From: Escherichia phage SpoonbillGilly
DNA: 64,000 nt
Sequence record: PP925828.1
Reading direction: 5' to 3' (one strand)
In this document: positions 51,982 to 57,408 of the stretch, piece by piece
How positions within the stretch are numbered: position 1 is the first letter of the stretch
Layout: each line of letters opens with the position of its first letter
Position numbers and translations under genes: made by a program
The notes under the pieces: model-generated
The model's input: the letters and a program-made list of their open reading frames with translations, nothing else
Databases searched by the model: none
Told to the model about the DNA's origin: nothing

Positions 51982-52020
51982 AAAAAACCCCAGCGGATTG
52001 TCCGCTGGGGTTTTGTTTTA
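51982..52020. terminator. bidirectional rho-independent terminator between convergent early and late transcription units
   Basis: Hairpin ccccagcgg...ccgctgggg flanked by A-run and T-run. Confidence 0.7.
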
Positions 52021-54312
52021 TTTAGCTTTTAGCTTTCTAATTTCTAATTTGGCAGAATCCAGTTCTTGCTTAAGAGTTGTAACAGCAGCTATTAAGTCAG
52101 AAATCAAAGCAGATGTACTAACGTTTAATACCTCTTCTCCTTCCCCAACAGTTGATGAATATACATAGGTAGGATCTACATCACGTAATTCCTGAGCAAT
52201 ATATCCTCTATCATGCCTACCTCCAGCTTTCCAGTCAAACTCTCTAGGAGTGATTTTAGTTATTCTATCTAAGGCCCCTTCTGGTGCTCTAACTATATTC
52301 TCCTTAAGTTTGATATCTGAACCTTCAATAGCAATAGTACCTGCAGTGGAAGCAATCCTACCATCATTAGCTCTAAAGAACCACTGTTTTAACCCCAATG
52401 AATTAGAATATGTAGATAAGGCTACAGCATCCAATACAGTAGAACCACTACGAATAGCACCGAACTGGAACCTATCGTCATACCACCATCCTTGCAGCCA
52501 GTTAACATAACCACCAGAACCTACAGCACCTGGGTTATTATTCAACTCGATAGCATTTCTCTCTGCTTGAGATACACCACAACCTCCACCAGGCATAGTA
52601 TGTAGATCTTGAGCAGTAGTAGCAGCATCTAAATGTAGGCCGTTGGCACCAAAAGCTTTTATCCAGGATTTATTATTAATCGAAGTAGGTAAGTTAACAA
52701 CACCATTAGATTGTACCTCTAGGTTGGCAAGATCCCCTGTCTCATTATTATAGGACTGAAGAACAGCAACACTATAAGGATTACCAAATCTTTTGGCACT
52801 TACTATTAAAGCTGAGTGATTAACTGTTTCCCCTATTCTATAATCACTATATGCAAAACCACCATAAGTAGTAGTCCCATCAGCAGGACGTGTAGAGTCT
52901 CCATTAATAACATGATACTGTGAACCAGCAGCGTTAAAAGAACCGTTAGCACGGATAATCCAAAGACCAGTAACAGCAGTAGGGCGTACCTCTGGTGTAC
53001 CATCTCTTCCGTATACTGGGCTACCTGCTGCAGCATTTAGAGAATATCCATACTTCTGAGTATCTACAAAATCCGCTGTCCCACTTCCTCCAGAATAATT
53101 AGCATCTGGGGCATCAGGCCATCCTGTATGGTTTATACCAGAGAAAATACCAGTAGCATACATTCCATGGTTATTTGGTACTCTTACAGAAAAGTTACCT
53201 ATTATATTAGGGGCAGCACTCATATTTAGCGCCCCAGAGGCAAATACTCCATTAATACTACCACCACCGTCACCACGAAGGAATGCTGCATAAGGGGTAT
53301 CATATCCTGCAAAAGGAATTCCATCCATAGTATCCCCATTTCTTCTAACGCCGTTTAAATCAGGTACACGGAAGTTAGTAGAGCCATCTCCTGTAGAATA
53401 TGCACCTCTATTCCCTGTTTTTTGGTAATCCTGACCGTAGGAGTTAGTTATCCACTCTGTATCACTAACACTTACGAATAATCCACCTGAAACTGCTGAC
53501 CATAAATCCCTAGTCCTGGTATCAGTACGACTTACTAGTTGACCATCTGCAGGAATATACCCAGCGGGTAGCTTAGTACGGTTACCATTAAACCACTCAA
53601 CAGCACCTATGAAGTTATTCATAACTCCACTCATGCTAGCGTTTCCGCCACCAGAAATATTAGATAGTTGCCTTACAGTTACAGCATCATAAGGAGCTTG
53701 CCCATCTGCAGCTAATGGTAATGGTTTACCATCCATTAGCTTAACTAGTGCCTCTGCTGCACTTAAAGCACCTGTACCACCTTGAGTAATAGGTAGTGCA
53801 TAGTTAGTGCCACCACCCTCAGCAGTAACTCCCCAAGCTCCCTCATTACTAATATAAAGTAACTTTGAGCCATCAGGAGATCCCATATATGAGACATCTG
53901 TTGACTTAGTGAGATGATTTAATTCTAGTGCTAAACGTGCTCCATCTGGAGAAGTAGCACCTGTACCACCTTGAGATACTGTAATAGCCTTAGTAAGTGC
54001 ATTTAATTCTGTAATATCATTGTTAGCACCCTTAGCCGCCTTGGCACTTAGACTACTATTAATACTACCAATTGCAGTATTAATATTTCCAATAGCTTCA
54101 GTATTACTTTGAATAGAGCTATCTATTCCAGTAAGACGAGTAGCTAGAGCTTGCTGATCTAAATTATACTTAGAGATTTGTAAGTACTTAGAAGTAAGCA
54201 CAACAGCGCCAGCCTCTCCGTCAATAGAGAAAACCCCTGCAACAGCAGCATCCCTGTTAACTACAATATATGGCGCCATTGCGCCAGATTTAGGCATTAA
54301 ATTACGTGACAT
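52018..54312 (-). CDS. tail fibre protein (second fibre gene) with C-terminal intramolecular chaperone / S74-like autoprocessing domain
   Basis: 764 aa; repeated QGGTGA motifs; C-terminus ...DIKLKENIV...YIAQELRDVDPTYV...LDSAKLEIRKLKAK typical of IMC domains. Confidence 0.7.
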   Translation of the reverse strand: MSRNLMPKSGAMAPYIVVNRDAAVAGVFSIDGEAGAVVLTSKYLQISKYNLDQQALATRLTGIDSSIQSNTEAIGNINTAIGSINSSLSAKAAKGANNDITELNALTKAITVSQGGTGATSPDGARLALELNHLTKSTDVSYMGSPDGSKLLYISNEGAWGVTAEGGGTNYALPITQGGTGALSAAEALVKLMDGKPLPLAADGQAPYDAVTVRQLSNISGGGNASMSGVMNNFIGAVEWFNGNRTKLPAGYIPADGQLVSRTDTRTRDLWSAVSGGLFVSVSDTEWITNSYGQDYQKTGNRGAYSTGDGSTNFRVPDLNGVRRNGDTMDGIPFAGYDTPYAAFLRGDGGGSINGVFASGALNMSAAPNIIGNFSVRVPNNHGMYATGIFSGINHTGWPDAPDANYSGGSGTADFVDTQKYGYSLNAAAGSPVYGRDGTPEVRPTAVTGLWIIRANGSFNAAGSQYHVINGDSTRPADGTTTYGGFAYSDYRIGETVNHSALIVSAKRFGNPYSVAVLQSYNNETGDLANLEVQSNGVVNLPTSINNKSWIKAFGANGLHLDAATTAQDLHTMPGGGCGVSQAERNAIELNNNPGAVGSGGYVNWLQGWWYDDRFQFGAIRSGSTVLDAVALSTYSNSLGLKQWFFRANDGRIASTAGTIAIEGSDIKLKENIVRAPEGALDRITKITPREFDWKAGGRHDRGYIAQELRDVDPTYVYSSTVGEGEEVLNVSTSALISDLIAAVTTLKQELDSAKLEIRKLKAK

Positions 54313-57300: not shown

Positions 57301-57408
57301 AATAGAATTACCTAAAACTACTGTATATTTAGGATACTTACTAGCAGTAGTTGTAGTGTCATCTATGTTCAGAATCTGCTGTACAATAATTTTAGTTTTA
57401 AGTGCCAT
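54355..57408 (-). CDS. L-shaped tail fibre protein (first fibre gene) with Ala/Ser/Glu-rich repeats and C-terminal intramolecular chaperone domain
   Basis: 1017 aa; GGTGA repeats (EKGGTGAINVDQARGAL, KHGGTGAVNASQIRANL, ERGGTGATDQNGARHNL); C-terminus SDIRLKAQL...GLIAQDV...ISNLEAELAELKAL. Confidence 0.7.
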   Translation of the reverse strand: MALKTKIIVQQILNIDDTTTTASKYPKYTVVLGNSISSITAGELTAAVEAAAGSAAAAKDSEIAAKDSENKAKDSEIQAGIHADASEASATQSAASAAESEKQAKLSQGSAENSAASALESKNFKDASELAAQNAEQSKILAEQAQRAAEAAQSGAQASENKASAFATQAAASSASAGDFAAAAKQSELNAKTSETNAATSEVEAETQAETATTEANRAKAEADRAAQIVDSKLDKEDISGFIKVYKTKEEADADVSSRVLGEKILVWNQTDSKYGWYKVAGTAEAPVLELVETEQKLVSINNVHADDAGNVQITLPGGNPSLWLGEVTWFPYDKDSGVGYPGVLPADGREVLRVDYPDTWEAIEAGLIPSVTEEQWQAGATLYFSTGNGTTTFRLPDMMQGQAFRAAAKGEENAGNIKEQIPYITMINGKAPADDGTITLGNAADKNVWNGVDGEVLLRGAFGLGGAGLILNEPDAVSFFKAMRAFGSGYYRNDSESNPVIPKYSAGFYSKTADTHTFICSAYGNGVTFVATVNDALLDGENPTVHTNTLYGTANKPDLNTDTQGVLGIEKGGTGAINVDQARGALKVPTFMTVLEGGPEQSLVYSPDFTKALKVDNSTEWGLANVADGSPIPLSIKHGGTGAVNASQIRANLNIQGVKCVTSQIPSDFNALSSPDDNLNLLIANNGVWGVQSTKGDIKPLLLERGGTGATDQNGARHNLGLATNHSPVFAGIDLQGLNGTTSGIAVLRNRNAEGTQISYSRVYNEIQGSVAKTTIQTTREGGGTNYFQIDEYGLITNVRAIRCAPSNVGGEGFTVGVVPGGAFTAWRDRPAGMIVEHPSDDVAVNVLKSVRWGGDWVMGIDAARYGAGGCEAHLNVKGTTYTFNDVGYASAVQWVSTSDIRLKAQLKEILSAKEKVKALQGYTYFKRNNLNEDEYSFYSEEAGLIAQDVITVLPEAVYKVEETDYLSISYSGVTALLTNAMKEVMADAEAQEARISNLEAELAELKALVATLVNK
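57181..57243. repeat. imperfect tandem repeat (about 21-nt unit x3) inside tail-fibre gene
   Basis: ttctgaatctttagc / tcagaatctttagc / tcagagtctttagc units encoding AAKDSEIAAKDSENKAKDSE. Confidence 0.55.

Follow-up and report, generated by a model that had tools for sequence, protein, structure and literature searches.

The lateral, L-shaped tail fibre of phage T5 is the product of a single ltf gene, the protein pb1 of 1396 amino acid residues (aa), no ltfB being present, and both this fibre and its intramolecular chaperone have been described (PMC4690869). A two-fibre locus was first described in 2016 in the phage DT57C, and roughly one half of those T5-like phages that had been sequenced are said to carry such loci (PMC4728585), the architecture being mentioned also in the paper on the BASEL collection (PMC8594841). 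The tips of the two DT57C fibre proteins serve different O-antigens, that of LtfA an O22-like one and that of LtfB the O81 one, and the lateral fibres are required on smooth hosts and dispensable on rough ones (PMC4728585; PMC10713586); in T5-like phages the lateral fibres bind the O-antigen as the primary receptor, a separate protein setting the terminal receptor (PMC8594841). Concerning the structure, the virion of DT57C was studied by cryo-electron microscopy (cryo-EM) in 2023 (PDB 8hqz), with only the N-terminal part of LtfA being resolved (PMC10713586). The present analysis deals with the tail fibre genes in a stretch of 64,000 nucleotides (nt) of Escherichia phage SpoonbillGilly (sequence record PP925828.1), the whole of which is referred to here as the window. 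This locus very probably represents the ltfC-ltfA-ltfB operon for the lateral (L-shaped) tail fibres of an Epseptimavirus—a T5-like Salmonella phage—and belongs to the DT57C-like, two-protein type.

The original prediction, made from the sequence alone, had placed here two consecutive tail fibre genes of 1017 and 764 aa, likened them to those of the DT57C-like two-fibre phages and set them against the single fibre gene of T5. All three points were borne out: the open reading frames (ORFs) lie exactly at the claimed coordinates on the minus strand (Table 1), T5 does possess just one such gene, and the alignment with DT57C gives an E-value of 1.8e-209 for LtfA 1–433 (matching DT57C LtfA, PDB 8hqz_d) and an identity of 82% (49/60) for residues 1–60 of LtfB. 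The genes are arranged in the order ltfC-ltfA-ltfB on one strand (minus), directly 3' of the pb4 gene, which is the order found also in DT57C, and the TAA stop codon of ltfC shares one base with the ATG of ltfA (TAATG). The assignment to Epseptimavirus is based on the fibre locus being nearest to those of the phages Sepoy (NC_048760, gp090 and gp091) and vB_SabS_Sds2, both classified in this genus and both having the spacer between ltfA and ltfB as well as the terminator the same as in the window; in the nearest relatives the locus is annotated as two tail-fibre genes. In the replication block, the DNA identity to phages including KKP 3953 and EH4 is about 98%. It should be noted that NCBIfam returned no family that was of use for the three proteins.

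The relatedness to DT57C is distributed unevenly along both proteins. The identity of LtfA to its DT57C counterpart is 100% in residues 1–39, 69% in 40–235 and 86% in 236–435, and drops to 18–26% beyond residue 435; that of LtfB is 82% in residues 1–60, 77% in 61–113 and 29–38% further on, giving 35% overall. The first segment of LtfA corresponds to the strands whose insertion into the LtfC/TTMP ring is known from the DT57C structure, where the coiled coil is resolved from T40 onward (PMC10713586); the rod region is, in addition, 47% identical to residues 1–215 of T5 pb1. As for the third segment, residues 223–471 of DT57C LtfA, related to phiEco32 gp14, have been put forward as the dock for LtfB, the N-terminus of which is homologous to phiEco32 gp15 (PMC4728585), and a control alignment of LtfA with T5 pb1 found no counterpart of LtfA 236–435. 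The putative dock (LtfA 236–435) and the N-terminus of LtfB are thus conserved together in two-fibre phages, the distal parts being variable, as would be expected for an LtfB that is borne by LtfA. This co-conservation, taken together with the literature, suggests that LtfB is carried on LtfA.

The dock region, however, also matches the proximal long-fibre protein gp12 of the kuravirus SU10 (LtfA 233–435 with 7z47_D, E-value 1.6e-40), whose long fibre is described as having a proximal and a distal trimer and a single elbow (PMC9509320). From this homology it could be argued that LtfB is just the distal half that continues LtfA end to end, similar to the pair gp12/gp13 of SU10, so that each fibre would have effectively one tip. 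Such a serial fibre seems improbable, since LtfA runs for about 460 residues past the dock and ends in its own tip and an intact S74 domain, which would be pointless at a joint, and since LtfA and LtfB of DT57C give separate O-antigen specificities (PMC4728585). Still less probable, and to be considered only as a marginal alternative, are two independent sets of fibres with LtfB joining the tail without LtfA; nothing in the window speaks in its favour, and it owes its place here only to the LtfA–LtfB joint having no direct structure. LtfB does not resemble the attachment peptide of T5 type at the N-terminus of LtfA, no density for LtfB was seen on the tail core of DT57C by cryo-EM (PMC10713586), and the LtfB-dependent infection by DT57C needs LtfA, apart from the receptor recognition by LtfA itself (PMC4728585). 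A two-protein fibre with LtfB attached to LtfA thus remains the preferred arrangement.

Both proteins end in an intramolecular chaperone, as the original prediction had it, and homology to Peptidase_S74 is missing at neither of the two C-termini. The Pfam family PF13884 (Peptidase_S74, 'chaperone of endosialidase') matches LtfA at residues 900–960 (E-value 2.2e-10, 41.1 bits, model positions 1–58 of 58) and LtfB at residues 665–717 (2.9e-11, 43.9 bits, positions 1–57 of 58), both scores exceeding the curated cut-off of 22 bits. The pair of serine and lysine separated by four residues is kept in both, as S900DIRLK905 in LtfA and GS665DIKLK670 in LtfB; in the alignment of the LtfA family (49 sequences) the serine, aspartate and arginine are invariant and the lysine nearly so, and in that of the LtfB family (50 sequences) the lysine is invariant with the serine and aspartate nearly invariant. 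BLASTP aligned the segment STS900DIRLK905 of LtfA directly with NTS1264DARLK1269 of T5 pb1, where the bond Thr1263-Ser1264 is cleaved and Lys1269 activates the serine (PMC4690869), from which the cuts are predicted between T899 and S900 in LtfA and between G664 and S665 in LtfB.

When family profiles were compared with the sequences of the PDB, the LtfA profile reached the ICA (auto-processing) domain of MYRF (7dc3, E-value 3.7e-6) and gp37 of S16 (6f45, 9.4e-30), and the LtfB profile reached the same two (3.8e-14 and 2.1e-13, respectively) together with the tail fibre 8jov (1.8e-17) and gp12 of GA-1 (3gud, 1.4e-3). Searches with the single sequences of the chaperone domains got to S16 gp37 and 8jov only, profiles being needed for MYRF and GA-1 gp12; T5 pb1 (4uw8) and K1F (3gw6) were not reached by sequence. 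The AlphaFold 2 monomer models, prepared for LtfA 700–1017 and LtfB 440–764 (predicted local distance difference test, pLDDT, of 76 and 82, respectively), show in both chaperone parts the succession helix-strand-strand-helix-strand-strand followed by a long C-terminal helix, with pLDDT of 80–95 there. Another idea is that of one gene being a degenerating copy whose chaperone is dead, leaving a single working fibre protein; in its favour, Golomidova et al. report that loci with two genes lack genetic stability and are often reduced to one (PMC4728585). In the present case this is hardly credible: both ORFs are intact, both S74 matches cover the whole model with the serine and lysine kept in each, and LtfB is conserved at 98–99% in several independent phages and contigs.

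Beyond its docking region, LtfB resembles DT57C LtfB less than it does the distal part of DT57C LtfA. The phmmer search matched LtfB 104–494 with DT57C LtfA 444–824 (whole-sequence E-value 1.1e-44), and the profile of the LtfB family matched residues 413–1075 of DT57C LtfA, i.e. its distal approximately 660 residues, with an E-value of 1.1e-152; this implies that the tip modules are exchanged between the A and B positions, besides between phage families. Within the locus itself, the collar-like domain of LtfB is paralogous to LtfA 318–424 (31% identity, E-value 3e-11). LtfB is 98% identical to gp091 of Sepoy and 99% identical to a protein present on two metagenome contigs, where it stands alongside a Sepoy-type LtfA of 1071 aa, so that, judged by its sequence, LtfB is an already existing allele.

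The situation is different for LtfA. Across the fibre locus, the DNA identity to Sepoy is 86–100%, except for approximately positions 54420–55700 (~1.3 kb, from aa 573 to about 1000), the only part where it falls to 18–79%. The left junction of this cassette coincides precisely with the first of the GGTGA motifs in LtfA, with the identity extending through 'GIEKGGTG' and the divergence starting after it, and the right junction falls within the final helix of the chaperone. The LtfA of Sepoy and Sds2 has 1071 aa versus 1017 aa in the window. The best match for the distal 448 residues of LtfA, 64% overall, is a protein (P0001) of the T1-like Escherichia phage vB_EcoS_W011D, a member of the Drexlerviridae, i.e. 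of another phage family, with a genome of about 50 kb and an unrelated N-terminal attachment region; its fibre has the same layout of GGTGA module, tip and S74 domain as LtfA of the window. By segments, LtfA 1–572 is at least 98% identical to Sepoy LtfA and has no meaningful similarity (0–20%) to the W011D fibre; residues 573–706 are distant from Sepoy (27%), W011D (30%) and DT57C (22%); residues 707–803 exhibit 63% identity to Sepoy and 82% to W011D, residues 804–897 33% and 94%, respectively, and the chaperone part 898–1017 82% and 64%, respectively.

Among 5.8 billion proteins, none was more than 64% identical to the distal 448 residues of LtfA over nearly the full length, or more than 68% over 83% of it, and a lookup of the exact LtfA protein found no record. 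The exact DNA words of the new stretch (LtfA 573–720) were absent from IMG/VR and the JGI metagenomes, and the back-translated peptides were absent from IMG/VR. A literature search for the receptor of the W011D tip gave nothing. It looks like the phage has, with regard to its nearest relatives, exchanged an approximately 1.3-kb piece of ltfA and gained a T1-like tip, with the dock, LtfB and LtfC remaining unchanged; on these identities, the distal LtfA allele is the only novel part of the locus. The phages DT57C and DT571/2 differ from each other in the same manner, with a switch in the O-antigen specificity (PMC4728585). It is conceivable, with the chances falling somewhat short of even, that the cassette is a cross-family chimera—a 134-aa pair of GGTGA modules lacking relatives above 30% identity, a T1-like tip and a Sepoy-like chaperone—that would give a primary-receptor specificity not seen in T5-like phages.

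With regard to the GGTGA motifs marking the cassette border, repeats of this type had been predicted in each of the two genes, and they are indeed present three times in LtfA, at residues 573, 640 and 707 with an exact period of 67 aa, and twice in LtfB, at residues 115 and 178; from the composition alone, only 0.008 and 0.012 occurrences, respectively, would be expected per protein. Each of them is embedded in a longer common context, [ILV]x[ILV]xxGGTGAxxxxxAR, and the modules they bound are homologous, sharing the pattern GGTGA...AR...SPD...L.I.N.G.WG..., with the modules of LtfA 573–706 being 34% identical to the module of LtfB 102–192. At the DNA level, the two QGGTGA-coding stretches of ltfB (53767–53786 and 53956–53975, repeat family D11) are 100% identical over 20 nt, and a third copy, 75% identical, is located in ltfA at 55477–55496. 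These 20-nt repeats could provide short homology for the shuffling or deletion of modules.

The spacer between ltfA and ltfB contains a hairpin, for which positions 54313–54354 had been given in the original prediction; a hairpin does lie between the genes, this span being, however, that of the whole spacer and the hairpin proper occupying 54329–54350. It starts 4 nt past the stop codon of ltfA, and 6 nt separate its end from the ribosome-binding site AAGGAAA of ltfB, which is not sequestered. At the window's own rate, 0.009 perfect stems of 8 base pairs (bp) would be expected per spacer of 42 nt. In all seven relatives examined, a hairpin occurs at the same position of the spacer, the stem being ATAGGGGAG/CTCCCCTAT or a near-identical form in six of them, with variable loops—TAATT in Sepoy and Sds2, TAAC, ATTA, TAATC and TTTC in others, and TACTCC in the window—and the remaining spacer nearly identical. 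In DT57C the spacer bears an unrelated G+C-rich hairpin, GGGGC-UUCG-GCCCU. With its stem invariant and its loop variable, the element might be a functional RNA or a recombination element; that it acts on the stability or processing of the ltfC-ltfA-ltfB transcript can be offered only as a guess of low confidence. A role as an intrinsic terminator was considered and rejected, since the coding strand continues with UUUACUAAGG, there is no U-run and the terminator scan made no call on that strand; the DT57C hairpin is followed by no U-run at all. Over the whole window, the count of perfect 8-bp hairpins (loops of 3–8 nt) was 26, well above the figure of about 6.6 in composition-matched shuffles.

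Taken as a whole, the assembly of the fibre could be envisaged as follows. LtfA would be anchored in the LtfC collar by its N-terminal peptide, and LtfA and LtfB, as in their family, would each trimerise. Each chaperone domain would template the folding of its tip and then cleave itself off at S900 or S665, with K905 or K670, respectively, acting as the base. The mature LtfB trimers would then dock via their N-termini on LtfA 236–435, so that each of the three lateral fibres would be branched and carry two distinct receptor-binding tips, most likely for two types of O-antigen. The branching and the dual receptor specificity, both foreseen in the original prediction, are what we infer from this comparison. 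On smooth hosts, the lateral fibres would make the initial, reversible contact, and pb5 would recognise the final receptor in the outer membrane. The further claim that the locus is the likely host-range determinant accordingly holds for the range of O-antigen serotypes and fails for the terminal receptor, which is read by pb5 (PMC4728585; PMC8594841).

Several observations should be weighed against this picture. Even in DT57C the branch is not directly visible at high resolution, only weak densities having been obtained (PMC10713586), and for the present phage the attachment of LtfB to LtfA, the chaperone cleavage and the receptors are predictions by homology. In the LtfA sequence inspected by eye, the Arg/Asp 'folding sensor' residues do not occur at the T5 spacing upstream of S900, there being no arginine 14 residues before it (the T5 counterparts, forming the oxyanion hole, are Arg1250 and Asp1239); conserved R829, R831 and K850 are found farther upstream in the 49-sequence alignment. 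Foldseek, when run with both C-terminal monomer models against the PDB, returned nothing at an E-value of 0.001, the K1F chaperone (3gw6) appearing at 1.1, which is ascribed to monomer models of an intertwined trimer being unsuitable; the S74 assignment is based on the sequence, the profiles and the predicted secondary structure, not on a three-dimensional match. Concerning the spacer hairpin, its folding energy is ordinary in the 76-nt context (z = -0.87), and the stem is constant among the close relatives, so that it offers no covariation, the unrelated DT57C hairpin apart.

As regards the surroundings of the locus (Table 1), the terminator that starts three bases past the ltfB stop codon closes the fibre operon, and the convergent block of replication genes lies beyond it. 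Both Sepoy and T5 carry a terminator annotation at the corresponding site, which in T5 reads as an efficient bidirectional terminator. The convergent block on the plus strand comprises a DUF7369 ORF followed by the genes for dUTPase and flap endonuclease, the ORF for a PDDEXK-type endonuclease and the gene for an SbcC-like ATPase. The DUF7369 ORF (51708–51980, 90 aa, E-value 2.5e-34) and the end of the dUTPase gene overlap; the ORF stops 4 nt short of the terminator and is kept in the relatives. Farther away, 16 tRNA genes are clustered on the minus strand at 650–11225, namely those for Val, Lys (two), Met (two), Pro, Gly, Asp, Asn, Cys, Trp, Glu, Tyr, Leu, Ser and Arg. A tRNA cluster of this kind is typical of T5-like genomes.

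Table 1 Features of the lateral tail fibre locus and its neighbourhood, listed in the direction of the minus strand (coordinates refer to the window)
Feature	Coordinates	Strand	Description	Supporting match
949-aa gene	59894–62743	-	Position of DT57C stfC / T5 pb3	Pfam Phage-tail_3; PHROG 'central tail fiber J'
pb4 gene	57836–59893	-	Straight-fibre gene upstream of ltfC	
ltfC	57408–57830	-	140-aa collar protein anchoring the lateral fibres (predicted)	Pfam PF23926 LtfC, E-value 1.9e-15; 95% identity to DT57C LtfC
ltfA	54355–57408	-	1017-aa fibre protein, proximal and attached to the tail, that has a tip and a chaperone domain of its own (predicted)	PHROG 5481 tail fibre, E-value 0
LtfA aa 1–39	57292–57408	-	N-terminal strands, predicted to insert into the LtfC/TTMP ring	DT57C LtfA 1–39
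LtfA aa 40–235	56704–57291	-	Alpha-helical trimerisation rod; 32% Ala, 13% Ser, 12% Glu	DT57C LtfA
LtfA aa 236–435	56104–56703	-	Domain similar to phiEco32 gp14 / SU10 gp12, including a collar-like motif; putative LtfB dock	DT57C LtfA
LtfA aa 436–572	55693–56103	-	Shaft segment	99% identity to Sepoy; aa 458–558 41% identical to T5 pb1 386–487
LtfA aa 573–706	55291–55692	-	First part of the replaced cassette; a pair of 67-aa modules with GGTGA at their borders	No close relative
LtfA aa 707–899	54712–55290	-	Distal tip, presumed receptor-binding domain	T1-like (Drexlerviridae) type
LtfA aa 900–1017	54358–54711	-	Intramolecular chaperone; predicted scissile bond T899–S900, base K905	Peptidase_S74
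Stem-loop	54329–54350	-	54329–54336 paired with 54343–54350; perfect 8-bp stem, 6-nt loop, inside the 42-nt spacer 54313–54354	
ltfB	52018–54312	-	764-aa second fibre protein	PHROG 6921, E-value 6e-136, full length
LtfB aa 1–60	54133–54312	-	Conserved N-terminal domain, putative attachment to LtfA	DT57C LtfB
LtfB aa 115–182	53767–53970	-	One GGTGA-bounded module	
LtfB aa 222–334	53311–53649	-	Tail collar-like domain	PF07484 Collar, 24.2 bits (cut-off 24)
LtfB aa 335–664	52321–53310	-	Distal part with shaft and tip; presumably the second receptor-binding domain; variable among LtfB homologues	
LtfB aa 665–764	52021–52320	-	Intramolecular chaperone; predicted scissile bond G664–S665, base K670	Peptidase_S74
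Intrinsic terminator	51984–52014	both	Bidirectional; 14-bp stem with 8 G-C pairs, 3-nt loop, T-runs on both strands	

For the annotation, the names LtfA and LtfB (with LtfC upstream) should be preferred to the generic 'tail fibre', the predicted ends of the mature proteins being T899 and G664, respectively. In a T5-like Salmonella phage, it is this locus that most likely decides the O-antigen serotypes to which the phage adsorbs, which makes it relevant to phage biology and therapy. Because it departs from the nearest relatives almost solely in the 1.3-kb piece of ltfA, a receptor could be assigned to this cassette by comparison with the Sepoy-type phages; the chimeric cassette, if its origin is as outlined above, would be a clean natural case of motif-guided swapping of tips between phage families and a possible template for fibre engineering. 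It should be pointed out that a design with two fibres, chaperones of the S74 type and fibre tips evolving as mosaics are all established, so that conceptually there is nothing new.

Compared with the S74 domains of known structure (K1F 3gw6, GA-1 3gud, MYRF 7dc3 and S16 6f45), the chaperones of the window share the Pfam match, and the serine and lysine separated by four residues, a long C-terminal helix being predicted in both, and differ by low sequence identity. T5 pb1 has in common with LtfA the N-terminal attachment and rod (47%, residues 1–230), the shaft (41%, residues 458–558) and the S74 cleavage motif, its tip—the polymannose-binding 'bullet' domain—being unrelated to that of the window. 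The closest described counterparts are the LtfA-LtfB-LtfC systems of DT57C and DT571/2, which share with the window the gene order, the strand, the position downstream of pb4, pfam13884 at both fibre ends and the presence of a hairpin in the spacer. The genus is different, Epseptimavirus for the window versus Tequintavirus for DT57C, and so are the sizes, 1017 versus 1076 aa for LtfA and 764 versus 788 aa for LtfB; the distal parts of both proteins are only 18–38% identical between the two phages, and the receptor specificity is therefore presumably different.

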